In this document: positions 8,221-38,997 of the stretch, one piece after another
Layout of the letters: each line of letters starts with the position of its first letter
Numbering within the stretch: the first letter of the stretch is position 1
From: a virus
Virus record (IMG/VR): IMGVR_UViG_3300012933_000306
Location: 1-38,997 of that record
DNA length: 38,997 nt
Direction: 5' to 3' (one strand)
Position numbers and translations under genes: made by a program
The notes under the pieces: generated by a model
Database searches by the model: none
The model's input: the letters and a program-made list of their open reading frames with translations, nothing else
Told to the model about the DNA's origin: nothing

Positions 8221-8703
8221 ATGAAGTCTTTACTAACCATAAGCATACTTGCTGTACTTAATTTTAATTTTAATTTTTTACCAACAGGTACGCTTATGGT
8301 AGGTATTGGGCTTGCAATGGCCTTAGATCTATGTACGGGCATAATTAAGGCCATATTTAAAGATGAACAAAGAACTTCACAAGGTTATCGTAAGACAATT
8401 AAAAAGTTCACACAATACTTCGGGGCCATATCAATAGGCATTTTAGTTAGATACGCATTTAGGACTGAATTAGGCGCACCTGAATACCTTGTGTATGCTG
8501 ACTTTTTTAATAATAGTCTACTAATCTTTATCATCTTTATTGAGATAGTAAGCATACTTGAAAACATGCTTGAAATAGACAACAAAAGCCCTTTTGCAAA
8601 ATATTTTATTCGCCCAATGCTAAATATCTTAACTTTAGCACTTAAAAACAACTTTGTAGCTAAACAAGCGGATAAGTTGGAGGCAAATTCACAATCAAAA
8701 TAA
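8221..8703 (+). CDS. Holin (Phage_holin_4_1-like, multi-TM)
   Basis: 160 aa with several hydrophobic helices. Motifs ALDLCTGIIKA and IVSILENMLE are typical of this holin family. It is adjacent to the endolysin. Confidence 0.8.
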   Translation: MKSLLTISILAVLNFNFNFLPTGTLMVGIGLAMALDLCTGIIKAIFKDEQRTSQGYRKTIKKFTQYFGAISIGILVRYAFRTELGAPEYLVYADFFNNSLLIFIIFIEIVSILENMLEIDNKSPFAKYFIRPMLNILTLALKNNFVAKQADKLEANSQSK

Positions 8704-8710
8704 ACACAAT

Positions 8711-8863
8711 ATGAAGAACTGGAAAACAACTTTAGCAGGAGTTATTATTGCAGCTATTGCAGGTGCAACTTATTTACATTATTTGACTGCTGAACAAGCA
8801 GTAGCAATCACTGGAACTTTAACCGCTTTAGGTTTAATTTCAGCAGAAGATGCTAAAAAGTAA
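8711..8863 (+). CDS. Small membrane protein (50 aa; possible second holin or antiholin)
   Basis: Not in the ORF track (under 60 aa). Hand translation gives MKNWKTTLAGVIIAAIAGATYLHYLTAEQAVAITGTLTALGLISAEDAKK. It fills the gap between the holin and lipoprotein genes. Confidence 0.55.
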   Translation: MKNWKTTLAGVIIAAIAGATYLHYLTAEQAVAITGTLTALGLISAEDAKK

Positions 8864-8868
8864 GTAAG

Positions 8869-9441
8869 ATGCGACACATATTAATTTTATGCTTTATAGC
8901 TGTAATTGCTTCGTGCAGTACAGCTAGTAAAATACAGAAAGCTGAACAGCTTGTAATTACTAACCCGCAATCATTTGAGAAACTAGGCTTAAAATGGGCG
9001 GAGTTGAACCCTTGTGCCAATGACACAATCATTTCATTGGTGGAAGCAGCCATTGATTCCATCACATTTGCTGATTATCTTAAATACCTTAATACTAAAA
9101 ATGGGCCAACTAAAGCTGACTCAATTCCGTTAATGCTTAGACAAGCCTACTATTTTGGGTTTGATGAAGCTAAAAAGCAATATGGGTCGGTTAAGATACC
9201 TAAAGTAGAAAGAAAAACCGTTATTAAGACCGTTTTAGATACTCGCGGACTTAATAAGGCCAAAGACTCAATCAATAAATTAAACGCTGAAAAAGGAGCT
9301 TATTTAGGGCAAATAGGACAGCTCAATATTGAGCTTTCTAAATCGGATAAGAAATCTACTAAGTGGGTATTTTTATTCATAGGCGCTTTAGTATTATTTA
9401 TGGCATCTTTATACGTAAATATTCGCAAATATCTGATATGA
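8869..9441 (+). CDS. Lipoprotein with a C-terminal TM helix; unimolecular-spanin candidate
   Basis: N-terminal lipobox MRHILILCFIAVIASC, central coiled-coil-like stretch (NKLNAEKGAYLGQIGQLNIELSK) and C-terminal TM WVFLFIGALVLFMASLYV. ATGA overlap with the endolysin start. Confidence 0.65.
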   Translation: MRHILILCFIAVIASCSTASKIQKAEQLVITNPQSFEKLGLKWAELNPCANDTIISLVEAAIDSITFADYLKYLNTKNGPTKADSIPLMLRQAYYFGFDEAKKQYGSVKIPKVERKTVIKTVLDTRGLNKAKDSINKLNAEKGAYLGQIGQLNIELSKSDKKSTKWVFLFIGALVLFMASLYVNIRKYLI

Positions 9442-9959
9442 GATATGATTGGCTTAAATATGAAGATGCACCTAAACATTTGGTTCAAGCAGTCAGGCTT
9501 ATGGGTACTAAAGAAGTGCCTGGACTTAAGTCAAATCCTACGATTTTAGCTTGGGCCAAAGAGTTAAGATTGCATGAAATTTACCGAAATGACGATACGG
9601 CTTGGTGCGGATTATTTATTGCAATTACGTTACACAGGGCAGGAAGGGATATACTTCATGCCTACGGTAATTTAAGGGCAAGAGAATGGGCCAATTATGG
9701 TTTAAAAGTAGACAAAGCAGAATTAGCGGACATACTTGTATTTGTAAGAGAGGGAGGCGGTCATGTGGGATATTATGTAGCGGAAGATGCTGACTGTTAT
9801 CACGTATTAGGAGGAAATCAATCAAATATGGTAAATGTAACTAGGATTTTAAAAACTAGATGCACAGCCATTAGACGCATACCATATGACAATAAACCTA
9901 AAAATATAAGGTCAATTGTAATCAATTCATCCGCTGAAATAAGCACAAACGAAGCATAA
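9438..9959 (+). CDS. Endolysin, TIGR02594/NlpC-P60(CHAP)-like peptidoglycan hydrolase
   Basis: MRYDWLKYEDAPKHL...GLKSNPTILAWAKEL...DDTAWCGLFI...ADILVFVREGGGHVGYYV fits the TIGR02594 pattern. I prefer the ATG at 9438 (ATGA coupling) over the track start at 9363, whose extension is hydrophobic junk overlapping the previous gene. Confidence 0.8.
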   Translation: MRYDWLKYEDAPKHLVQAVRLMGTKEVPGLKSNPTILAWAKELRLHEIYRNDDTAWCGLFIAITLHRAGRDILHAYGNLRAREWANYGLKVDKAELADILVFVREGGGHVGYYVAEDADCYHVLGGNQSNMVNVTRILKTRCTAIRRIPYDNKPKNIRSIVINSSAEISTNEA

Positions 9960-10953: not shown

Positions 10954-11388
10954 ATGCGCTTCGAGAAAGTATATAGCATGGGTAAAATCTTAAGTAATGA
11001 TACTTATGAGGCTTTAATGTTTCAAGATAGAAACGGCCCTGCTTTTAGAGAATGCGAGAATGAGTTTAAAGACAATCGGGATTGGTGGATAATGCGCAAT
11101 AAAAGGAATGAGATAGTGGCTTATTGTGGTAGTGCTTATTCAGAAGGTATTGCTATTTTCCTACGTGCCTGGGTAATTAAGTCAAAAAGAGGCAAAGGAT
11201 TGCAAAAACACATGATTAAATTGCGTTTAAATGCCGCTAAACAGCGTAAATGCAGAGTAGCTATAACTTATACAATGAAATGGAATTACCCAAGTATGAA
11301 CAATTTAATAGGTTCTGGGTTTAAGATTTATGGCCCTTCATGGGAATACGGGGGTAAGGAAATGGTTTATTTTAAAAAAACTTTGTAA
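10954..11388 (+). CDS. GNAT-family N-acetyltransferase
   Basis: 144 aa. The motif-A-like segment VIKSKRGKGLQKHMI (R/Q-x-x-G-x-G/A) and overall size fit the GNAT fold. Confidence 0.7.
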   Translation: MRFEKVYSMGKILSNDTYEALMFQDRNGPAFRECENEFKDNRDWWIMRNKRNEIVAYCGSAYSEGIAIFLRAWVIKSKRGKGLQKHMIKLRLNAAKQRKCRVAITYTMKWNYPSMNNLIGSGFKIYGPSWEYGGKEMVYFKKTL

Positions 11389-11450
11389 TTAATAAAAAAC
11401 TTTATTATCTTTGGGCTTCATAGGTAATATTTGAGTTAATAAGCGAACAA

Positions 11451-11480
11451 GGCCCTTTATTTCTATAAGGGGCCTTTTTT
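11451..11480 (+). terminator. Rho-independent terminator closing the tail/lysis/accessory operon
   Basis: GGCCCTTTAT-ttct-ATAAGGGGCC (10-bp stem with one G-U pair) followed by TTTTTT. Confidence 0.8.
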
Positions 11481-11493
11481 AAAACGTAAAACA

Positions 11494-11658
11494 ATGGCAG
11501 GAGAATACATTACACAAACGCAATTAGCAGATAAGCTAGGAATTAGCTTACAGCATCTAAATTATTACATTAAGATTAAAGCCGTAAAGACTCAAAAGCA
11601 GTACGGCAAATTGCTTGTTTTAGCAGATACTAAACTAGACATTAGGAAAAATAAGTAA
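11494..11658 (+). CDS. Mini HTH DNA-binding protein (54 aa), paralogue of the 24144..24320 product
   Basis: Not in the ORF track. Hand translation gives MAGEYITQTQLADKLGISLQHLNYYIKIKAVKTQKQYGKLLVLADTKLDIRKNK. It shares the pattern ITQ-x-(E/Q)LA-xx-LGI-x-L-x-H-xx-YYIK...YG-x-LLV with the minus-strand 58-aa protein. Confidence 0.7.
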   Translation: MAGEYITQTQLADKLGISLQHLNYYIKIKAVKTQKQYGKLLVLADTKLDIRKNK

Positions 11659-11669
11659 CTATTTACCGC

Positions 11670-11696
11670 TTATCACGGTATTTTGCCATTTATCAC
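11670..11696. promoter_or_regulatory. Two phased TTATCAC boxes (possible operator)
   Basis: TTATCAC occurs at 11670..11676 and 11690..11696, with 20-bp phasing. Each is followed by (T)ATTTTG. They lie between the HTH gene and the promoter-like box. Confidence 0.35.
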
Positions 11697-11701
11697 AATT
11701 T

Positions 11702-11732
11702 ATTTTGAAGTTAGTAAAAAACTTATTTATCT
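11702..11732 (+). promoter_or_regulatory. Promoter-like box, copy A (TTTG -33-like and TATTTAT -7-like)
   Basis: attttgaagttagtaaaaaacttatttatct is near-identical to 13166..13196. The TTTG to TATTTAT start-to-start offset is 20 nt. It is upstream of the early ORF cluster. Confidence 0.45.
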
Positions 11733-11756
11733 TAGCAGTACAATAAAAAAATAACT

Positions 11757-11960
11757 ATGCTAAAAGTATTTACAATTATAGAAAGAGAAACAAATACAAT
11801 ACATCAAGTAGTAGCTAAATCTTTTATAAAAGCTGTTGATATAGCCAGTTCACATCATGATATATTTCCTTCAGAAAAGAATTATGAAATTTATGATGTC
11901 CATATACATGGCGATATGTATGGCAAACATTTATGTTGCACTAGTATTTATCATAAATGA
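11757..11960 (+). CDS. Hypothetical early protein (67 aa)
   Basis: ORF directly downstream of promoter box A. No recognisable motifs. Confidence 0.6.
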   Translation: MLKVFTIIERETNTIHQVVAKSFIKAVDIASSHHDIFPSEKNYEIYDVHIHGDMYGKHLCCTSIYHK

Positions 11961-12051
11961 ATGGATAATTAGAAACATAATTCTAATTAACTTAAAAACA
12001 AACAACAAAAAGTCTTTATTAACCGAAATTGGAAATATAAATCTAAAAACA

Positions 12052-12246
12052 ATGACACCAACAAAAGAACAATTACTTGAATTTGGTATTCAGCTTGACC
12101 GCGAGTCAATTGATGTATTTGAAATGAATTACTTATATCGCTTTGACGATGTTAACTATGTAATTCTTACAGACGGAACAGTTATTACACAAGAGGAGGA
12201 TAATGCTTGTGGCCCAGACTTCGCAATATTTCCAATAAAACATTAA
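12052..12246 (+). CDS. Hypothetical early protein (64 aa; shortened from track ORF 11857..12246)
   Basis: The internal ATG at 12052 (MTPTKEQLLEFG...) follows an A-rich leader. The upstream part of the track ORF overlaps the previous gene by about 100 nt and is low-complexity hydrophobic sequence. Confidence 0.55.
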   Translation: MTPTKEQLLEFGIQLDRESIDVFEMNYLYRFDDVNYVILTDGTVITQEEDNACGPDFAIFPIKH

Positions 12247-12249
12247 ATT

Positions 12250-12414
12250 ATGAAACTAGAAACTGTTTATCTATTAAATGAGGCATATAAATATTGCAGC
12301 GAAAATCAAAAATCTAGTGAGTTTATGCTAGAATTTATGCAAGAGTTTGCTAATGTAGATTTGGATTGTGTACTAAATTTTTTGATAAAAAATGGAAAAA
12401 TAATTAAGCTATGA
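12250..12414 (+). CDS. Hypothetical early protein (54 aa)
   Basis: Not in the track. Translation is MKLETVYLLNEAYKYCSENQKSSEFMLEFMQEFANVDLDCVLNFLIKNGKIIKL. ATGA overlap with the next gene. Confidence 0.5.
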   Translation: MKLETVYLLNEAYKYCSENQKSSEFMLEFMQEFANVDLDCVLNFLIKNGKIIKL

Positions 12415-12665
12415 GTATAAGATATAGATTGGCATTTAATCCTAAAAACCCATCACATTTATTTGATCGAGCCAATAAGTATTGGGAAGAAGAAAAAGCT
12501 GAAAAGGTTGAAACACATCTTAAAGAAATAATGCTAGAATATAACCTAGACAAGGATTCGCCAATAACCTTATGTTTTAGAGGTAATTTATTTTGGGTAT
12601 CAATGTATGGGGAAAGAATAGGTAAATTATTAATATTTCAAAATCTTGATAAAAATGGCAAATAG
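12411..12665 (+). CDS. Hypothetical early protein (84 aa)
   Basis: ORF in the track, translationally coupled on both sides. Confidence 0.65.
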   Translation: MSIRYRLAFNPKNPSHLFDRANKYWEEEKAEKVETHLKEIMLEYNLDKDSPITLCFRGNLFWVSMYGERIGKLLIFQNLDKNGK

Positions 12666-12801
12666 CATATATTATTTAGGTCATAACATATTTAAAATGG
12701 GCGATGTTTATATTACTACAATAGATAGTCAATCGCATCCTTTAATAACTTCAGCAAAAGTACATATCGATTTTATAACAAGTCAAAAACAAAAATCATG
12801 A
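12655..12801 (+). CDS. Hypothetical early protein (48 aa)
   Basis: Not in the track. Translation is MANSIYYLGHNIFKMGDVYITTIDSQSHPLITSAKVHIDFITSQKQKS. It fills the gap and has an ATGA overlap with 12798. Confidence 0.45.
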   Translation: MANSIYYLGHNIFKMGDVYITTIDSQSHPLITSAKVHIDFITSQKQKS

Positions 12802-13166
12802 GCCAATACTTTGATCAGATTATTATAGCTAAAAAGAATATCGAAATTGCGATATTTATGGGTGCAGACACGTCTAAAAGTACAAGACATGTCATTACAG
12901 ACGAATTGTGGGATTTACACATTAAAGGCGTATTTTATACCCGCAATGAGCTTTGTTATCACATGAGTTGGAATTGGCTATTTCCTGTATTCGACAAAAT
13001 ATCTGCATGTAAAGAATTAGAAACAGACGGCATTTTACAAAAGTGCAAAACAGACCTTTTAGCCGATTTTAATGATGGCGCACACATAGAGGATATTTGG
13101 TATGGCTGCTGGAAGTTTATCGGAAGATTAGACTATTTGAAAACAAAAGAACCATTGGAAAAATAA
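12798..13166 (+). CDS. Hypothetical early protein (122 aa)
   Basis: ORF in the track with no motifs recognised. Confidence 0.7.
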   Translation: MSQYFDQIIIAKKNIEIAIFMGADTSKSTRHVITDELWDLHIKGVFYTRNELCYHMSWNWLFPVFDKISACKELETDGILQKCKTDLLADFNDGAHIEDIWYGCWKFIGRLDYLKTKEPLEK

Positions 13167-13196
13167 ATTTTGTAGTTACTAAAAAAGTATTTATTT
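13166..13196 (+). promoter_or_regulatory. Promoter-like box, copy B
   Basis: attttgtagttactaaaaaagtatttatttt aligns with 11702..11732, differing at a few positions plus a 1-nt gap. Confidence 0.45.
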
Positions 13197-13218
13197 TCAC
13201 ATTATTAAATCAAAAACT

Positions 13219-13500
13219 ATGACAAAAGAACAAGAAACACAAGTGGCGCTTATTACTGCGCACATGCATTTCACTGAAATTGCAATCAAAGATGATGAGT
13301 TTTTAATTGACCATCTTAATTACTATGAAAAGGTAAAATCTTACGCTGAAAGAAACAATATTCAATTATCTACAATTAACCCAAATGAAATTATCAATTC
13401 TATCCTTAAACGCGCTAGAGGTAACGATTACCGTGCTGATATTTTTAATGATAGTGTTTCTGTTCATAACAACGATAGTGGCATTATATCTGATTTGTAA
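13219..13500 (+). CDS. Hypothetical protein (93 aa)
   Basis: ORF downstream of promoter box B. Confidence 0.7.
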   Translation: MTKEQETQVALITAHMHFTEIAIKDDEFLIDHLNYYEKVKSYAERNNIQLSTINPNEIINSILKRARGNDYRADIFNDSVSVHNNDSGIISDL

Positions 13501-22682: not shown

Positions 22683-24071
22683 ATGATATACGAACCACAC
22701 GTTTACCAAGATCATGCGACAAAACATATTATTGAAAATCCTTATTCTGCTTTATTCCTTGAAATGGGGTTAGGTAAAACAATTTCAACCTTAACCGCTA
22801 TTGATGAATTAATGTATAACCTTTATGAGGTGCAAAAGGTTTTAGTAATAGCACCTAAATTAGTAGCAGAGGAAACATGGACAACAGAAGCCTTAAAATG
22901 GGAACATACTAAGCATTTGACAATGTCCTTAGTGTTAGGTACAGAAAGGCAAAGGAAAGAGGCTTTAAATAAGAATGTGGACATTTATGTAATTAATAGG
23001 GAAAACGTACAATGGTTAATTGGCTATTACGGTACTGCTTTTCCATTTGACATGCTTGTAATTGATGAATTATCTAGTTTTAAGTCTGCAAAAGCGATTA
23101 GGTTTAAATCCTTAAAGCAAATTCGACCTAAGATAAAAAGAGTTGTAGGTTTAACAGGCACTCCAGCACCTAATGGATTAATTGACTTATGGCCACAAAT
23201 ATATTTATTGGATCAAGGGGAAAGATTAGGAAAAACCATATCAGGATATAGGGAAAGATACTTTAATCCAGGAAGAAGAAACGGAGCAATTGTATATGAC
23301 TTTAAACTTAAAAGCGATTCAGAACAGCAGATTTATGATAAAATAGGCGATATCTGTATTTCCATGAAGGCAAAGGATTGGTTGGAGCTACCTGAAAGAT
23401 TAGATCAAAATAGGATTATAAAACTAGATCAAAAAACCCTAGAGGGGTATTTAGACTTTGAGAAAGAACAAATATTAACTTTATCAAACGGAGAGGAAAT
23501 AAACGCTATTAATGCAGCAGCTTTAACCAATAAGCTTTTACAATATGCTAATGGGGCTTTATACCATTCCGACAAAAGCGGAAACTATACAGAAGTACAT
23601 AAAAGAAAATTAGAAGCTTTAGAGGAAGATATTGAAGCAGCGAACGGAAATCCTTTTTTAATCTTTTATTCATACAAAAGCGATGCTGAAAGAATCATGA
23701 AGCATCTAAAAAGCTACGGCCCGAAAATCCTAGATGGGGGTAAAGACATAGTTGCTTGGAATAAAAAGCAAATCCCAATTTTACTAGCCCATCCAGCAAG
23801 CGCAGGTCATGGGTTAAATATGCAATCAGGCGGAAACCTCATAGGATGGTTTGGCCTTCCTTGGTCTTTGGAACTATACCAACAAGCCGTAGCACGTTTA
23901 GATCGACAGGGCCAGCAAATTAGTGTTATCAATAAAAGATATGTGGTTGATGGCACCATGGATCAGGACGTTTTAAGAGCCTTAGAGAATAAAACAGATA
24001 GTCAAGAGGCTTTAATGCAAGCCGTAAAGGCCCGAATTAATAAATATCTAAAAAACCTCGGAGGAGGGTAA
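22683..24071 (+). CDS. SNF2-family (DEAD/DEAH-like) helicase
   Basis: Motifs LEMGLGKT (I), VIDELSSF (II), LTGTPAPNGLIDLW (III) and QAVARLDRQGQ (VI). Confidence 0.9.
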   Translation: MIYEPHVYQDHATKHIIENPYSALFLEMGLGKTISTLTAIDELMYNLYEVQKVLVIAPKLVAEETWTTEALKWEHTKHLTMSLVLGTERQRKEALNKNVDIYVINRENVQWLIGYYGTAFPFDMLVIDELSSFKSAKAIRFKSLKQIRPKIKRVVGLTGTPAPNGLIDLWPQIYLLDQGERLGKTISGYRERYFNPGRRNGAIVYDFKLKSDSEQQIYDKIGDICISMKAKDWLELPERLDQNRIIKLDQKTLEGYLDFEKEQILTLSNGEEINAINAAALTNKLLQYANGALYHSDKSGNYTEVHKRKLEALEEDIEAANGNPFLIFYSYKSDAERIMKHLKSYGPKILDGGKDIVAWNKKQIPILLAHPASAGHGLNMQSGGNLIGWFGLPWSLELYQQAVARLDRQGQQISVINKRYVVDGTMDQDVLRALENKTDSQEALMQAVKARINKYLKNLGGG

Positions 24072-24143
24072 AACAGTTTCTTTTAAAAAACCTCCGAGGG
24101 GGTAACAAAGTAAGGGTATAACTTGACAAAATTTGTCAAATAG

Positions 24144-24320
24144 TTAAGGCAAAGCTTTACTTTTATTCTTTCGTGGGTTTATGGCATCAGTAGGAAATAC
24201 GAGCAAGCGCCCGTACTTCTCAACTGTTTTAATTTTACCCGACTTAATGTAGTACTTTATATGATTTAAAGTAATTCCGAGCCTCTGGGCTAGTTCTTTT
24301 TGGGTTATTGGTTCGGGCAT
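24144..24320 (-). CDS. Mini HTH DNA-binding protein (58 aa), paralogue of the 11494..11658 product; Aca-like position
   Basis: Not in the track. Reverse-complement translation is MPEPITQKELAQRLGITLNHIKYYIKSGKIKTVEKYGRLLVFPTDAINPRKNKSKALP. Confidence 0.7.
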   Translation of the reverse strand: MPEPITQKELAQRLGITLNHIKYYIKSGKIKTVEKYGRLLVFPTDAINPRKNKSKALP

Positions 24321-24347
24321 TGTGTTAATGTTTTAATAGCTTTTTCT

Positions 24348-24371
24348 ATTGCCTTGATAATAGCGGGCAAT
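24348..24371. promoter_or_regulatory. Inverted repeat ATTGCC-N12-GGCAAT upstream of the minus-strand HTH gene (possible operator)
   Basis: ATTGCC at 24348..24353 and GGCAAT at 24366..24371, within the 78-nt gap between the 72-aa ORF and the HTH ORF. Confidence 0.3.
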
Positions 24372-24398
24372 TTTTCTTTAGTTGTTATTATCATAAAA

Positions 24399-24617
24399 TT
24401 ATTTTTTCACTATTGAATAGTCCAATATTTCAAAAAAATTAGCCATTCTTTCGGCTTCTTCTTTCCTAAAAAATAAAAGGGCTTTAGATTTATCTTTTGT
24501 GATATGTTGGCAATAAGTGTTACATACTCCTTTTTTAGGGTTGTTAATACTTAGGTTTTCATGGTAATAAACTTTCGTTTCTCCATTTACACGCGTTTTG
24601 AATTTAATAAGATACAT
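24399..24617 (-). CDS. Hypothetical protein (72 aa)
   Basis: ORF in the track, on the same strand as and upstream of the mini HTH gene. Confidence 0.6.
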   Translation of the reverse strand: MYLIKFKTRVNGETKVYYHENLSINNPKKGVCNTYCQHITKDKSKALLFFRKEEAERMANFFEILDYSIVKK

Positions 24618-24641
24618 AAAATAAAGTTTTTGTTAATGCCC

Positions 24642-24663
24642 AAAAAGCCCGAACAAGTCGGGC
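24642..24663 (-). terminator. Rho-independent terminator on the minus strand
   Basis: The minus strand reads GCCCGA-cttgt-TCGGGC followed by TTTTT. It lies between the 130-aa and 72-aa genes. Confidence 0.6.
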
Positions 24664-24687
24664 CAAATGGTGGGGAAAGGATAAATT

Positions 24688-25080
24688 TTAATTTTTTGTC
24701 ATTTGTTGTAAAAGTTCATCGATTGAGTAGTAAACGTATTTTCTTTTAACTTCGGCGCATTGTGCATCGCTAAAATAACTTATTACTAATTTCATTGCCT
24801 CGGTATCATCTCCAATATAGCCGCATTCATGATTACTAAATTCATAATCATAAACGGCTTGTGGGTCGCATTCTTTACCTATTCTAGCGTTTAAAGATTC
24901 ATAATAAGAAAAAAGCGATTTAATACCTTCTTTGGTTCCATATAGCCCAGCGCCACCGCTTAAAATATCCTTTTTGTCTAGATTAAATTTTTTTAATCCT
25001 TCAGCCAATTGAGAATTTGAAAAAGCAAAAAAGCAATTTTCTAGTACTGGTTGTTGATTTTTAATTTCTTGGTAAGTCAT
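24688..25080 (-). CDS. Hypothetical protein (130 aa), co-oriented with radC
   Basis: ORF in the track. I cannot name a family from memory. It lies 25 nt downstream of the RadC gene. Confidence 0.7.
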   Translation of the reverse strand: MTYQEIKNQQPVLENCFFAFSNSQLAEGLKKFNLDKKDILSGGAGLYGTKEGIKSLFSYYESLNARIGKECDPQAVYDYEFSNHECGYIGDDTEAMKLVISYFSDAQCAEVKRKYVYYSIDELLQQMTKN

Positions 25081-25105
25081 AATAGTAAATTTTTAAATTT
25101 TAAGT

Positions 25106-25552
25106 TTATAATAGTCCAGATTCTTGAAATGAAAAATGTGATTCATCTGTTATTATAATATGGTCTAATAGACGCATATCTAACAATTTAGCCGCATTAG
25201 CTATTTTTTCAGTGATTGCCTTATCAGCGTTTGAGGGTTGTAAATTACCGCTAGGATGATTATGAGCTACTAAAATAGAACTAGCATTTGAAAGCAAAGC
25301 AAATTGAAAAATTACTTTTGGGTCAGCTATTGTAGCCGTTACCCCGCCACTAGAAACCTTATAAAAACCCAATACTTTATTTGCATTATTTAAGGCTATT
25401 ACTATAAAAGATTCAGTCCAATCCATTGTATCTGCATCAAAACACATACGAGCAATATCCGCGGCATCGTTTGAACTTGAAATAGTTTTTAATTCTGACT
25501 TTTTGCCCTTGTATTTTAAGGAAATGTTAAATTCTGGTAGATTATTTTTCAT
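25106..25552 (-). CDS. radC: RadC-like JAB/MPN domain protein
   Basis: VAHNHPSGNLQPSNADKAITEKI matches the JAMM/RadC signature H-x-H-P-S-G-x(7)-S-x-x-D. LLDHIII is also typical of the RadC C-terminus. Confidence 0.85.
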   Translation of the reverse strand: MKNNLPEFNISLKYKGKKSELKTISSSNDAADIARMCFDADTMDWTESFIVIALNNANKVLGFYKVSSGGVTATIADPKVIFQFALLSNASSILVAHNHPSGNLQPSNADKAITEKIANAAKLLDMRLLDHIIITDESHFSFQESGLL

Positions 25553-25554
25553 GT

Positions 25555-25650
25555 TTATTTGCTTGTGATTTCTTGAATAATAGTTTTTACTAATGTGATT
25601 AATAAGATGCCAACAATTAAAAAGATGGCAAAATCAATGATATTTATCAT
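25555..25650 (-). CDS. Micro membrane peptide (31 aa)
   Basis: Not in the track. Translation is MINIIDFAIFLIVGILLITLVKTIIQEITSK. Its stop is 2 nt from the radC start. Coding status is unproven. Confidence 0.4.
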   Translation of the reverse strand: MINIIDFAIFLIVGILLITLVKTIIQEITSK

Positions 25651-25651
25651 G

Positions 25652-25753
25652 CTATTTTATTTTTTCAGTTATTAAATTGAATACTAAATAAATAGCGTTA
25701 AAGATAAAAGCAGCGAATAAAGATAATTGTACGTACTGGATAACTTGGGACAT
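25652..25753 (-). CDS. Micro membrane peptide (33 aa)
   Basis: Not in the track. Translation is MSQVIQYVQLSLFAAFIFNAIYLVFNLITEKIK. It is packed head to tail between two other tiny hydrophobic ORFs. Confidence 0.4.
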   Translation of the reverse strand: MSQVIQYVQLSLFAAFIFNAIYLVFNLITEKIK

Positions 25754-25757
25754 GGTT

Positions 25758-25970
25758 TTAAAATTTATTGATTAATAATGAAATGATAAAAGAAGCGGTC
25801 AAACAAAATAGCATTGTTGAAAAATATCCAAACATTGCAAAAAATAAACCTAAGCAGGCAACGGATACGCAGGTAATAGTTAATAAAGCATTTAATTTTT
25901 TCATAAGTGAGTTTTTAAGCGTTTTTTGATAGATCAAAGATACATTAATTTTGTAGTTAGTACAAAACAT
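25758..25970 (-). CDS. Small membrane protein (70-aa ORF; a more likely start at 25904 gives 48 aa)
   Basis: From the internal Met the product is MKKLNALLTITCVSVACLGLFFAMFGYFSTMLFCLTASFIISLLINKF, with two hydrophobic helices. It is the first gene of the minus-strand block. Confidence 0.55.
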   Translation of the reverse strand: MFCTNYKINVSLIYQKTLKNSLMKKLNALLTITCVSVACLGLFFAMFGYFSTMLFCLTASFIISLLINKF

Positions 25971-25995
25971 TTTGTCAATTATTTTTAAAGTTTGT

Positions 25996-26027
25996 GATGA
26001 ATGGTAAATATTAAGGATGAACGGTAA
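25996..26027. promoter_or_regulatory. Phased direct repeats GATGAAyGGTAA in the divergent intergenic region upstream of terS
   Basis: GATGAATGGTAA at 25996..26007 and GATGAACGGTAA at 26016..26027 (11/12 identical, 20-bp phasing). Confidence 0.35.
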
Positions 26028-26064
26028 GTTATTTTATTATTTGCTTTTATTATATCTTTGAGGT

Positions 26065-26445
26065 ATGGAAAAGAAGGATAAAAAAACTACTAAAAAACTA
26101 CCTGTAAGATTTACAGGTAAAGAGGGAAACAGCTTTTCCGCTACAAATCAACCTAGCCCACAGGCTAAGAGTGAAGGCTGGAAAGAGTTTCGCAAAAAAA
26201 GAATGTTAACACAGGAGCTTATAAAGTTGATGATCGGAAAGGACGGAAAACCAAACGACACTTTTAAAGGTTACCTTAAAAGCTTAGTGGTAAATGCTAA
26301 ATTAGGCAACGCAAAAGCCATTGAGGCGGTTAACAAATGTTTGGAGGACGACATTACAAAAATCGAGCTATCGGGCGAAGTGGCACAAAGGCAATTGATG
26401 ACCATTGACCCGCTTAAATTAGATGATGCAGATACAACCGACTAA
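26065..26445 (+). CDS. terS: Terminase small subunit (putative)
   Basis: 126-aa basic protein immediately upstream of and overlapping terL. The N-terminal NQPSP-containing basic segment is seen in small terminases. The call is mainly positional. Confidence 0.55.
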   Translation: MEKKDKKTTKKLPVRFTGKEGNSFSATNQPSPQAKSEGWKEFRKKRMLTQELIKLMIGKDGKPNDTFKGYLKSLVVNAKLGNAKAIEAVNKCLEDDITKIELSGEVAQRQLMTIDPLKLDDADTTD

Positions 26446-33517: not shown

Positions 33518-33748
33518 ATGGCAAAAATTAAATTACATGGCGTTTCTATCAACACAGAAGCGTTTAAAACGGCTAAATCTGTAAGTGAGGCTAACTTGTT
33601 TGCACATTTAGGAGAAGGCGCAGAAGCGGCTGAAAACGACCTTTTAGCAGTATTAAACATTGTGGATAAGAAAGCTAAAAAGGAAAAAGTTGAAGTAACT
33701 GTTGAAAACTTATCTGAAGTAGAAGAAAATGGCAATACAGGGGCTTAA
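33518..33748 (+). CDS. Hypothetical small protein (76 aa)
   Basis: ORF in the track. It overlaps the next ORF by 20 nt. Confidence 0.6.
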   Translation: MAKIKLHGVSINTEAFKTAKSVSEANLFAHLGEGAEAAENDLLAVLNIVDKKAKKEKVEVTVENLSEVEENGNTGA

Positions 33749-34184
33749 AAACCTAGCGGTTGGATTGGCTTCTATCGACATGGAGGAGGAGCAATACCGA
33801 ATCGTAGAAGATAATCGGGATGAAATTGTTTTGGCACAAGCCGAAGTATTATCAGAGGGTAAAGACAAAACAGGCCAACCTAGACAAGATCAATACCGAC
33901 CTTTTACTATTCAGTACAAACAGGAATTTGGTAAAGGCTTAGGACGTGTAGTTGACCGAGTTACGTTTTTTATGACGGGCAATTTGTATTATAGCTTATT
34001 TGCAAGGGTTACAAAACGCACTTATAGCGTTGAATCGCCTTTGCCAACCTATGGTAAAATGCTTGAAAGAATTGGTAAAAACAATTTCGGCCTTGACCCA
34101 CAGAGGCAAATAGCGTTTAGGGATGGAATTACAATTCCCAGACTTAGACAGGTATTTTTCGAAAAAACAGGGTTACGCTTGTAA
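33729..34184 (+). CDS. Hypothetical protein (151 aa), in the tail-assembly region
   Basis: ORF in the track with its own ATG. No motif recognised. Confidence 0.65.
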   Translation: MAIQGLKNLAVGLASIDMEEEQYRIVEDNRDEIVLAQAEVLSEGKDKTGQPRQDQYRPFTIQYKQEFGKGLGRVVDRVTFFMTGNLYYSLFARVTKRTYSVESPLPTYGKMLERIGKNNFGLDPQRQIAFRDGITIPRLRQVFFEKTGLRL

Positions 34185-34198
34185 TGAGGTAACCGCAA

Positions 34199-34324
34199 AC
34201 AGACGTGGCAGATTGGAAATGCTTATAACCGCCATCGCTAAAAAACCATAAGGCGGTTATTGACTACATTGGCGACAGGTAGCACCTGAATAAGTGGTTG
34301 TAGGTTCGAATCCTACCGTCTGTT
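34199..34324 (+). ncRNA. 126-nt tRNA-like element (canonical acceptor, D and T arms; aberrant 76-nt core; no recognisable anticodon arm)
   Basis: 7-bp closing helix ACAGACG (34199-34205) / CGTCTGT (34317-34323). U8 at 34206. D stem GCA (34208-10) / TGC (34220-22) with A14, G18G19 (34215-16) and A21. T arm GTAGG-TTCGAAT-CCTAC (34300-34316). Between the D and T arms lie 76 nt, including a 9-bp hairpin ATAACCGCC (34225-33) / GGCGGTTAT (34252-60) with an 18-nt loop. No CCA is encoded. Confidence 0.6.
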
Positions 34325-34338
34325 CAAACAACAACAAA

Positions 34339-34914
34339 ATGCAAGAACTAAGTTTCTCAACTTGTACTATAAACGAGATGATAGGCTTTATGTTTGACGG
34401 TAAGACGCACCCGAATTGGGATGAAATTTACTTAGAATATATTGACACATCTGGAATAGCCATAACGCAAGAATATGAATTGCTATTAGGCATTCACAAT
34501 TTACAAACTAGGTTAAATGCCGTACCTGAATACGTAAAAGTACAGACTGTTTGTTGGTACAATTTTAGACGTTTACATCCCGTAGCTACTGAACGATTAG
34601 CTAGATACGGTTATAAAATGCCTAAGACTGGCAACCCAATACCTGTATTAGCAAGAATTGAAAGCAAAGAAAAAAGGTTTCATCACGACATTAAGGTAAA
34701 AGAAGCCCAACTTGAAAAGCTAAGAGCATCACAAAAAACGGGCAAAGAAGGCAAAGAATCAAGACGTGAATTTATACGTTTACTAAATCATTTAGGCACA
34801 AAATACAGAGTTGATCGTGATAAAACTACGTGTGAAGAATTAGCTTTAATGGTAAAAGATATGAATGATGAAGCTTTAGCACAACAAATGGAGAGTATGT
34901 CAAGAGGAAAATAG
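34339..34914 (+). CDS. Hypothetical protein (191 aa), possible tail assembly chaperone (the track ORF starts at GTG 34294)
   Basis: ATG at 34339 (MQELSFSTCTINEM...) follows an A-rich leader. The GTG-extended N-terminus would be encoded by the T arm of the tRNA-like element. It lies directly upstream of the tape measure gene. Confidence 0.65.
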   Translation: MQELSFSTCTINEMIGFMFDGKTHPNWDEIYLEYIDTSGIAITQEYELLLGIHNLQTRLNAVPEYVKVQTVCWYNFRRLHPVATERLARYGYKMPKTGNPIPVLARIESKEKRFHHDIKVKEAQLEKLRASQKTGKEGKESRREFIRLLNHLGTKYRVDRDKTTCEELALMVKDMNDEALAQQMESMSRGK

Positions 34915-38171: not shown

Positions 38172-38997
38172 ATGGGAATACCTACTAAAAATTGGCTATA
38201 CTTTATTGGGGATAATAAGGGTAAAACTGCACGTATTAGCAACGGAGTTGTTAGTATGCTTGGCGGCCCTCCTGTACCTTTGGCACAAAATCCACAAGGT
38301 TGGCAAGACATAGAAGTAGGGTTTGCAACAGATTTTAAGTATAATAGCCTTAACAGAATGGCTACTATTCCAATGACTTTTATAGGCGATGGCGCTGAAA
38401 TATTACGCTATTTTATGTATAGTGGTAAAGGGTTTAATGAGGATTTATACGTTATAGCCCTTAAAAAATCCTATGCAAATGGCAAATACGAGCTTCAATA
38501 CAGCGGAAAGCTAGATATGTCAAAAGCAAAAGATAATCCTTTAATAGGGGTAGAAGTACCTGCAAAAGAAGGAGGAATCATGTCTTATATTGCTGCAAAT
38601 GAAAGTGTGATATATGAAATAGACTCAACTAGCGCAAATACTGATACTGAAAGCGTTTTATTTGATGGAGCAAGTTTTAGCAATGTATTTGATTTTATCT
38701 TTGGGTCAACTCCTTCAGGAGAGTCATTTGGTTCGGATTTTAGTTTAAAAAATGGTATTTATGGTACTTTTCCGTTCGTATATGACACAGAACAGGGGCT
38801 TTCTTTTAATTTAGTTAAAGGAAGTACTATTGAGCCAGATAATTTTTCAGATTTATCCGCATATGTTTCAAGTTCTGCAAACTATCTTTTTTATTCGGCA
38901 GACCCAATTACTATCGACATAAATGGTTTTTTAGTATTTACCAAAAAAATAGCTACAAGCCCATCTTTATTTAACATAGATTTATTTTTTTACACTT
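38172..38997 (+). CDS. Tail tip/baseplate structural protein, 5' part of a wrap-around gene (continues at nt 56 of the window; 1,064 aa in total)
   Basis: ATG at 38172 follows the terminator after the tape measure gene. I translated it by hand to the window end with no stop (MGIPTKNWLYFIGDNKGKTARISNG...FTKKIATSPSLFNIDLFFYT). The frame matches frame 1 at the window start. It is absent from the ORF track because it has no stop in the window. Confidence 0.85.
   Translation, partial: MGIPTKNWLYFIGDNKGKTARISNGVVSMLGGPPVPLAQNPQGWQDIEVGFATDFKYNSLNRMATIPMTFIGDGAEILRYFMYSGKGFNEDLYVIALKKSYANGKYELQYSGKLDMSKAKDNPLIGVEVPAKEGGIMSYIAANESVIYEIDSTSANTDTESVLFDGASFSNVFDFIFGSTPSGESFGSDFSLKNGIYGTFPFVYDTEQGLSFNLVKGSTIEPDNFSDLSAYVSSSANYLFYSADPITIDINGFLVFTKKIATSPSLFNIDLFFYT
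38943..38997. repeat. Second copy of the 55-bp terminal repeat
   Basis: Identical to 1..55. Confidence 0.95.

Follow-up and report, generated by a model that had tools for sequence, protein, structure and literature searches.

Why should a phage genome that is otherwise read in one direction carry a single block of genes on the opposite strand? The question arises from the IMG/VR virus record IMGVR_UViG_3300012933_000306, the whole 38,997 nucleotides of which are referred to here as the window. Within it, positions 24144-25970 are the sole minus-strand coding block; outside this block, all open reading frames (ORFs) of at least 70 amino acids (aa) lie on the plus strand, except for minus-strand ORFs situated inside longer plus-strand ones. 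An initial annotation, made from the sequence alone, had singled out the block on this ground, and our ORF survey (≥70 aa) agreed with it, as well as with its coordinates and the presence of every gene it listed. The explanation to which we give slightly better than even chances takes the block for an accessory cassette that is transcribed independently and can be swapped by recombination, and whose RadC and DUF7659 proteins act on DNA or DNA-bound host factors against host barriers. The cassette, placed where the replication and packaging modules meet, would consist of a frame, i.e., a promoter of the host type within a divergent control region that is conserved, one to three tiny membrane peptides, an HTH_17 protein with a helix-turn-helix (HTH) motif, and a terminator, and of variable cargo, here RadC and DUF7659, which would be stand-alone versions of domains found in the polyvalent proteins of conjugative elements.

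The related phages carry the argument for a replaceable cassette. The closest of them (L002), whose flanking proteins are 83-93% identical to those of the window, has a minus-strand slot at the same place with genes for a 210-aa protein, the peptide tm27, a 54-aa protein, and an HTH protein (47% identical), and without RadC, DUF7659, and the orphan gene orf72. In L056 (helicase 76% and portal 64% identical), the slot holds tm33, tm31, a 102-aa protein, DUF7659 (78%), a 55-aa protein, and an HTH protein (64%); the 102-aa protein stands in the place of RadC and shares 79% identity with the L002 210-aa protein over the N-terminal half of the latter. Two near-identical fragments (L080 and L081) bear the island of the window, L083 (RadC 88% identical) has RadC and then DUF7659, L084 and L085 (RadC 78% identical) have three small peptides, RadC, and DUF7659, and an unrelated phage (L086) encodes a homologue of the 102-aa protein directly upstream of a 67% identical RadC. 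The parts of the slot are shuffled in L056, L082-L085, and L086, and the HTH protein, 95% identical in L080, is the sole block protein with a homologue in every examined relative covering that end of the slot. Whether the block varies among related phages, a check proposed by the initial annotation, is answered by L002, which shows that it is not fixed in all relatives. Because no empty slot was found among these relatives, that is, none in which the flanking genes are adjacent, a fixed frame with shuffled cargo, or a “replaceable cassette,” seems to fit better than a strict moron insertion. The earlier view of the block as a moron, anti-defense, or superinfection-exclusion cassette therefore holds insofar as the block is non-core, accessory, and swappable, as the cargo of L002 and L056 demonstrates, but not insofar as it implies a moron insertion in the strict sense. 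Phage morons, hypervariable hotspots, and the anti-defense islands of plasmid leading regions (PMC11541004) resemble the block, whose own promoter and terminator are predicted, in their lower G+C content, their location between modules, and the turnover of cargo among close relatives, whereas the block differs from morons and leading-region islands in that the slot is filled in the relatives found, has a conserved frame of peptides and HTH protein, and contains no recognized anti-defense cargo. Variable accessory slots at module junctions are common in phages, and phage-borne RadC is already on record; what is added here is the frame-and-cargo architecture of the slot.

Selection on the block genes was estimated from the ratio of nonsynonymous to synonymous substitution rates (dN/dS) by comparing the window with the L080 fragment (∼90% DNA identity) and, for tm33, with L056. 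The ratio was 0.07 for DUF7659 against L080 (0.07-0.12 overall), 0.09 for the C-terminal part of RadC, 0.15 for the HTH protein, 0.17 for orf72, and 0.06 for tm33, while a 29-aa ORF gave 0.40 from very few sites. Values of 0.06-0.17 indicate that the genes are real and selected. The cassette is under purifying selection, with far less constraint than the replication core, represented by the helicase (0.006). The helicase gene itself (22683-24071) differs from that of L080 at ∼7% of its nucleotides, nearly all of the differences being synonymous, which represents unusually strong purifying selection. The composition of the block is also distinct: its G+C content is 30.2%, compared with 35.6% in the genome, 41.0% in the primase gene, and 35.9% in the adjacent helicase gene, which places it at the 3.4th percentile of same-size windows, with positions 11371-13200 lower still (29.1%). 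The AT-richness noticed earlier is thus real relative to the backbone, but the contrast of 25% with 43% had been exaggerated.

Independent transcription is suggested by the regions that bound the block. Positions 25905-26064 (160 nt) are conserved in L002 and L056 despite their differing cargo, and contain a predicted promoter of the block, TTTG-N20-TATCTTTG (25935-25966, minus strand), whose boxes and spacing are kept in L002. This is a full match to the Bacteroidetes promoter consensus, TTTG-N19-21-TAnnTTTG, and one of six in the genome, where 1.8 are expected and none of 100 shuffled sequences reached six; a scan for sigma-70-type promoters was uninformative (15 found versus 11.4 expected). 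Judging from the promoter type and the taxonomy of homologues, the host is probably a member of the Bacteroidota, and homologues of the island genes came from genome bins of Paludibacter, Lutibacter, Alistipes, Odoribacter, Prolixibacteraceae, and Cytophaga. The cassette would be transcribed early, by unmodified host RNA polymerase. The −33 element of this promoter is overlapped by a palindrome, TTTTGTA-N5-TACAAAA (25949-25967), that L002 and L056 retain and that would be expected 0.09 times by chance. A copy of this palindrome with one mismatch lies at 13168-13186.

At the other end of the block, a terminator is predicted at 24050-24099 (minus strand), consisting of a 9-bp G+C-rich inverted repeat, CCTCGGAGG / CCTCCGAGG (24056-24064 / 24091-24099), followed by U6; the fold has a z score of −4.0, and 0 of 200 shuffles were as stable. 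The terminator is built of a duplicated motif, AAAAAACCTCSGAGG (24050-24064 and 24085-24099), which overlaps the helicase stop codon and occurs twice where 0.02 occurrences are expected; one copy is kept in L002 and two in L056, at the 3′ ends of the helicase genes. The first copy in the window encodes the extra C-terminal helicase residues NLGGG. Directly downstream of the HTH gene lies a perfect palindrome, TTGACAAAATTTGTCAA (24123-24139), which can be written as TTGACAAA-A-TTTGTCAA and would form a 9-bp hairpin, but its role is doubtful because it is not conserved in L002 or L056. Inside the block, between DUF7659 and orf72, a terminator-like hairpin, GCCCGA-N5-TCGGGC followed by U5 (24642-24664, minus strand), has a folding energy of −16.2 kcal/mol and a z score of −2.05. 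The internal terminator, the flanking terminator and palindrome, and the divergent region with repeats had all been pointed out in the initial annotation, and sequence features corresponding to each were found. A moron is expected to have its own promoter and terminator, for which the block has candidates in the predicted consensus promoter and the predicted terminator hairpins. Read from this promoter, the order on the minus strand is the first hydrophobic peptide, tm33, tm31, RadC, DUF7659, the internal hairpin, orf72, the 29-aa ORF, the HTH gene, the palindrome, and the terminator.

What the cargo might do was approached first through the RadC protein. RadC148 (25106-25552, minus strand) is a short RadC of 148 aa that consists of a JAB domain only, without HhH, and retains the E...HxH...S-x2-D residues. 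It matched PF04002 with 132 bits (cut-off 22.1; E-value (E) 1.3e-38) over profile positions 2-121 of 121, PHROG 10276 (“DNA repair protein”) with E 8e-39, and PDB 2QLC with E 4e-22, in which E47 and H97-N-H-P-S-G-NLQP-S-N-A-D agree residue for residue; the motif in RadC148 is HNHPSG-x5-S-x2-D. The RadC-like JAB protein with an intact metal site that had been read from the sequence was thereby borne out. The NCBIfam models of full-length RadC (PRK00024 / TIGR00608) gave scores below their cut-offs (123.4 bits versus 180 and 116.6 versus 133.85), with the full-length model matched at positions 82-211 only. Judged by these comparisons, RadC148 is of the short, mobile-element type and not a canonical chromosomal RadC. 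Short JAB-only RadC genes of mobile elements, such as the JAB gene of pOXA-48 and PHROG 10276, likewise encode ∼148 aa with a PF04002 domain and the E/HxH/SxxD residues, without HhH, and the YeeS, YkfG, and YfjY genes of E. coli cryptic prophages are also short JAB-only RadC genes. The setting is similar, too, since mobile-element RadC genes lie among small genes of unassigned function and beside a small HTH gene, as in pOXA-48, where the order is DUF3085, RadC, and HTH, with DUF4942 nearby. The adjacency of DUF3085 and RadC on plasmids and a predicted complex of the two have been described in a 2026 paper (PMC12826799). Unlike in those elements, the neighbor here is DUF7659, and the element is a virulent-looking phage, in which RadC is rare: RadC homologues were found in 2380 of 72,556 plasmids (1645 of the 2380 being conjugative) versus 44 of 50,697 phage records, which makes RadC ∼38 times commoner in plasmids than in phages. 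One phage example is Tenacibaculum phage Gundel_1, where RadC comes second among the genes that follow the terminal repeat.

The same JAB fold had led the initial annotation to a speculative link with defense, in which a phage-borne JAB protein would counteract the ubiquitin-like conjugation of the cyclic oligonucleotide-based antiphage signaling system (CBASS) or of Bil systems. We regard it as very improbable that RadC148 is a deubiquitinase-like isopeptidase that strips the conjugates of CBASS type II (Cap2/Cap3) or Bil. The JAB deubiquitinases Cap3 and Bil do share the JAB/JAMM fold and the Zn-binding motif with RadC148, whose Zn site appears intact, and a structure comparison of a RadC-like domain found its nearest folds among JAMM isopeptidases and proteases, not nucleases (PMC11981726). 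RadC148, however, falls by sequence into a different JAB clade, and its scores to the PADLOC JAB models were 14.5 bits (E 0.0069) and 11.4 bits (E 0.041), over residues 95-134, which cover the metal motif only, versus 132 bits to RadC. RadC-type JAB domains have been argued to have nucleic acids or nucleotides as their targets (PMC3239186, PMC5512222) and to be without the groove into which a ubiquitin tail fits, as reported in PMC5512222. Neither a ubiquitin-like gene nor E1 or E2 genes were found in the phage genome, and all contextual partners that we found are DNA-linked (MutS-I, LPD11) or belong to conjugative elements. The ubiquitin-like route is therefore unlikely, given the RadC clade, the weak scores to defense JABs, and the DNA-linked context, and in the explanation that we prefer the targets of RadC and DUF7659 would not be ubiquitin-like conjugates. 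Because the nearest folds of the RadC-like domain are JAMM proteases (PMC11981726), RadC148 may nevertheless have protease activity on some other, non-ubiquitin-like target.

The second cargo protein, of 130 aa (24688-25080, minus strand), had been listed without a family; the gene is present, and its product belongs to Pfam DUF7659 (PF24692; 41.8 bits versus a cut-off of 27, E 1.4e-10). Among the matches listed (E ≤0.001), 187 homologues carry the DUF7659 Pfam tag. In an alignment of the family, the invariant residues included CFFAF, Q24, G45, G48, T49, C71, Q74, Y77, E80, NHEC (83-86), D92, and R113, and the residues C16, C71, H84, C86, E80, E85, and D92 suggest a metal or catalytic site. 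The family is small (718 clusters at 50% identity) and nearly missing from cultured phages, with one record, and a search of IMG/VR for it with peptide patterns found nothing. An AlphaFold2 model was predicted with a local distance difference test score (pLDDT) of 95, but Foldseek searches with it against PDB and BFVD gave best E-values of 1.4 and 0.11 with TM-scores of at most 0.44, and hence no fold match, and a profile search against PDB sequences gave E-values of at least 0.55. Fold searches had been proposed earlier for this protein, RadC, and orf72: DUF7659 gave no match, RadC aligned to 2QLC, and the AlphaFold2 model of orf72 (pLDDT 54) was unusable. A relationship of DUF7659 to DUF3085, the RadC neighbor on pOXA-48, was considered and rejected, the hhalign probability being 0.1%. 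Literature searches turned up no paper naming the family.

Its context is more informative. DUF7659 is fused to LPD11 in two proteins (P0270 and P0306) and to MutS_I in two others (P0286 and P0340), and in a Prolixibacteraceae genome bin (L075, 6417-8367), genes for RadC, a stand-alone MutS_I of 91 aa, a 130-aa protein, and DUF7659 follow one another on one strand. The DUF7659 match in this bin is in two overlapping pieces, which may be due to a frameshift. Elsewhere, DUF7659 has among its neighbors DUF4314, DUF932, DUF4942, LPD28, and DUF1281_C, as well as orphan methylases and the capsid and portal genes of phages. RadC, MutS-I, and LPD domains are counted by Iyer et al. (2017, PMC5512222) among the components of polyvalent proteins in conjugative elements; these authors found MutS-I outside MutS only in polyvalent proteins and proposed that solo versions of polyvalent domains beside phage structural genes aid the early phase of invasion, a picture with which the cassette agrees. 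By its fusions to LPD11 and MutS_I, the row with RadC and MutS_I, and the LPD28 neighbor, DUF7659 can be counted among the polyvalent-associated domains. RadC, MutS-I, LPD11, LPD25, and LPD28 are all in the polyvalent repertoire; in contrast to polyvalent proteins, the window has separate small genes and no polyvalent protein, and the link of DUF7659 is by fusion and neighborhood. DUF7659 is thereby given a context for the first time, alongside RadC and MutS-I.

The DNA-linked context is open to another interpretation, namely that RadC and DUF7659 assist in the repair, recombination, or replication of phage DNA, as an extension of the replication module, and have no part in counter-defense. 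The block adjoins the VRR-NUC, SNF2 helicase, and primase genes, in bacteria, fusions join RadC to HhH, primase, and DinG helicase domains (PMC3239186), DUF7659 has its own fusions to MutS-I, a mismatch-binding domain, and in two phages (L086 and L087) the RadC gene is found 2-4 kb upstream of RecT. An extension of the replication module would, however, hardly be expected on the opposite strand with its own predicted promoter and terminator, nor to be missing from the closest relative, which has the whole replication module, and the constraint on the block is far weaker than that on the helicase (dN/dS 0.07-0.17 versus 0.006). E. coli radC mutants, moreover, were normal in DNA-damage sensitivity, according to work cited in PMC11981726. 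We accordingly hold the repair interpretation to be a minor possibility. In the explanation that we prefer, RadC and DUF7659 would act on DNA or DNA-bound host factors so as to aid the incoming or replicating genome past barriers. A bolder form of it is that RadC and DUF7659, with MutS-I where present, make up a loosely linked, DNA-directed toolkit for counter-defense or genome establishment that is shared by conjugative elements and phages, in which RadC would be the Zn-dependent catalytic part and DUF7659 a Cys/His-bearing, DNA-associated partner of a previously unseen fold; this we put forward tentatively, as rather unlikely.

Several findings weigh against the explanation that we prefer. 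The DUF7659 fusions amount to four proteins, and an obligate pairing of RadC and DUF7659 was rejected, as the two lie within 8 kb of each other in 1 of ∼20 loci outside this phage lineage. PADLOC gave no convincing model match for any block gene, and literature searches turned up no report of an anti-defense role for RadC or DUF7659. The LPD25 match in the alternative cargo of L002 is sub-threshold, the assignment of the host phylum is deduced from the promoter type and homologue taxonomy, and the single line of evidence for early expression is the match to the promoter consensus.

The tiny hydrophobic peptides at the promoter-proximal end belong to the frame. The first gene (25758-25904, minus strand) probably encodes 48 aa, although its longest ORF extends to 25970 and would give 70 aa. 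A start at M23 (ATG at 25904) is probable because the first cargo gene of L002 has its start codon at the position aligned with this ATG, and because the first 22 codons of the longer ORF overlap the promoter and the palindrome, which are conserved as noncoding DNA in the relatives. It is followed by tm33 (33 aa; 25652-25753, minus strand), which is 82% identical in L056 and 70-79% identical in L082, L084, and L085, and by tm31 (31 aa; 25555-25650, minus strand), which has one predicted transmembrane helix and a grand average of hydropathy of 1.7, is 68% identical in L056, and bears a weak likeness by eye to the 27-aa peptide of L002, of which tblastn found copies in L082-L085. All three peptides of the initial annotation are thus present, with the qualification that the one of 70 aa is most likely 48 aa long. 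They raise the alternative that the block serves mainly for superinfection exclusion or to manipulate the host membrane, the soluble cargo being secondary. Their conservation within the frame (tm33 70-82% identical, dN/dS 0.06, and a similar small peptide in L002) is consistent with such a role, as is the presence of the true lysis cassette elsewhere (8221-9959), because of which the block peptides are not expected to be the main holin. The peptides matched no family in the Pfam and PHROG scans, however, the virulent-looking genome would limit the benefit of exclusion to the infection period, and RadC and DUF7659, both strongly selected, would find no explanation, so that we consider this alternative improbable.

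At the distal end, HTH58 (24144-24320, minus strand) is the last gene of the block and encodes a 58-aa DNA-binding protein of the HTH_17 (MerR/excisionase) type (PF12728, E 1.1e-6). A mad1-like match in PADLOC (E 9e-8) was dismissed as a generic HTH match. The protein probably regulates the shared control region, which leads away from the block into the packaging operon. There, two exact direct repeats of GATGAAYGGTAA, 20 nt apart (25996 and 26016; 25996-26027, plus strand), are the sole exact copies in the genome, lie upstream of the packaging operon, and are conserved in L002 and L056. They are followed by a −7 box, TATCTTTG (26053-26060, plus strand), 4 nt upstream of the ATG of orf126 and conserved as TAnnTTTG in all three phages, and a TTTG −33 element at the proper spacing was not found for this orf126 promoter. 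An activator that binds at the GATGAAYGGTAA repeats may be needed for the packaging operon. The product of orf126 (26065-26445), which overlaps the start of the large terminase gene, is conserved in the relatives, and has no Pfam match, is presumably the small terminase, and the repeats could be its binding site rather than that of the regulator. These features could be taken to mean that the block is chiefly regulatory, HTH_17 binding the conserved repeats and palindrome to switch on the packaging and structural operon, with the remaining genes as passengers. The window, L002, and L056 all retain the HTH protein and the control region, the plus-strand promoter has a −7 box without a −33 element, and the repeats occupy the position of an activator site. 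Yet the HTH identity is 47-64%, versus repeats that are nearly invariant, a small-terminase site is equally possible, and dN/dS values near 0.1 are not expected of passengers. The chance that regulation is the chief role therefore seems slim.

Between HTH58 and DUF7659 lie orf72 (24399-24617, minus strand), a 72-aa orphan without a Pfam family, whose homologues form one cluster among 5.8 billion proteins, and the 29-aa ORF (24305-24394, minus strand), which overlaps the HTH58 start by 16 nt and is 83% identical in L080 and L081 and 71% identical in L083. The latter had been missed in the earlier gene list, in which the other genes are real.

The remainder of the genome is that of a virulent-looking phage. 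Its first 55 nt are identical to 38943-38997, and from this exact terminal identity the window can be taken as a circular assembly and a complete genome of ∼38.9 kb. PHROG scans of the plus-strand ORFs gave a layout with tail and virion proteins, the lysis cassette, terminase, portal, and major head genes, and a T7-like replication set comprising DNA polymerase A, a primase-helicase, an exonuclease, a Gp2.5-like single-stranded DNA-binding protein, a deoxynucleoside monophosphate kinase, VRR-NUC, and an SNF2 helicase. For the ORFs outside the block, no integrase family was among the PHROG matches listed (25 of 43 families). To judge from these listed matches, the block does not have the make-up of a temperate immunity region, i.e., an integrase and an opposite-strand CI-like repressor, the HTH protein being of 58 aa and encoded at the distal end of the operon. 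Positions 11371-13500 are the most AT-rich stretch of the genome and contain a series of small plus-strand ORFs without family matches (11.4-13.5 kb); because a full Bacteroidetes-type promoter, TTTG-N20-TATCTTTG (11382-11413, plus strand), heads the stretch, this is probably the early region. No other plus-strand promoter with the full consensus is comparably placed. Positions 34199-34324 (plus strand), between ORFs 33729-34184 and 34294-34914, matched the Rfam tRNA model with 36.2 bits, above the gathering score, with a good fit of the acceptor, D, and T arms and 71 nt in place of a 17-nt anticodon arm; ARAGORN made no call; an interrupted tRNA is one possibility and a tRNA-like element another.

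Beyond the close relatives, a DNA search of the INPHARED phage collection returned distant helicase matches only and no close cultured relative, and helicase-based searches of IMG/VR and a metagenome collection returned mostly phages that are 50-55% identical and without the slot. In L170 (helicase 59% identical), plus-strand methylase-like and HNH genes follow the helicase, and there is no minus-strand block. Orphan DNA methyltransferase-like genes and an HNH endonuclease, recognized by motifs seen by eye, lie around the SNF2 helicase in L026 (1900-6760) and L170 (7374-8443), which suggests that this neighborhood is a general accessory hotspot. In L056, L082, and L084, the portal is 64-66% and the orf126-like small subunit 64-69% identical to those of the window, while the large terminase, of the Terminase_3 type, is just 33-35% identical; an exchange of the gene for this large subunit seems to have taken place.

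The findings demonstrate no new mechanism, and their meaning lies in the families and the phage lineage concerned. RadC is among the most widespread families of bacteria and mobile elements without an assigned biochemical function, and its old “DNA repair” label is disputed, while DUF7659 is now placed, by context, in the polyvalent-protein network of invasion factors. Within the phage lineage, RadC and DUF7659 are naturally present in some variants and missing from others on an otherwise similar genome, which would permit a clean comparison if the phages are culturable. If RadC and DUF7659 do belong to a shared toolkit of conjugative elements and phages, this small virulent phage would be a genetically simple setting in which to work out the long-missing function of RadC proteins.

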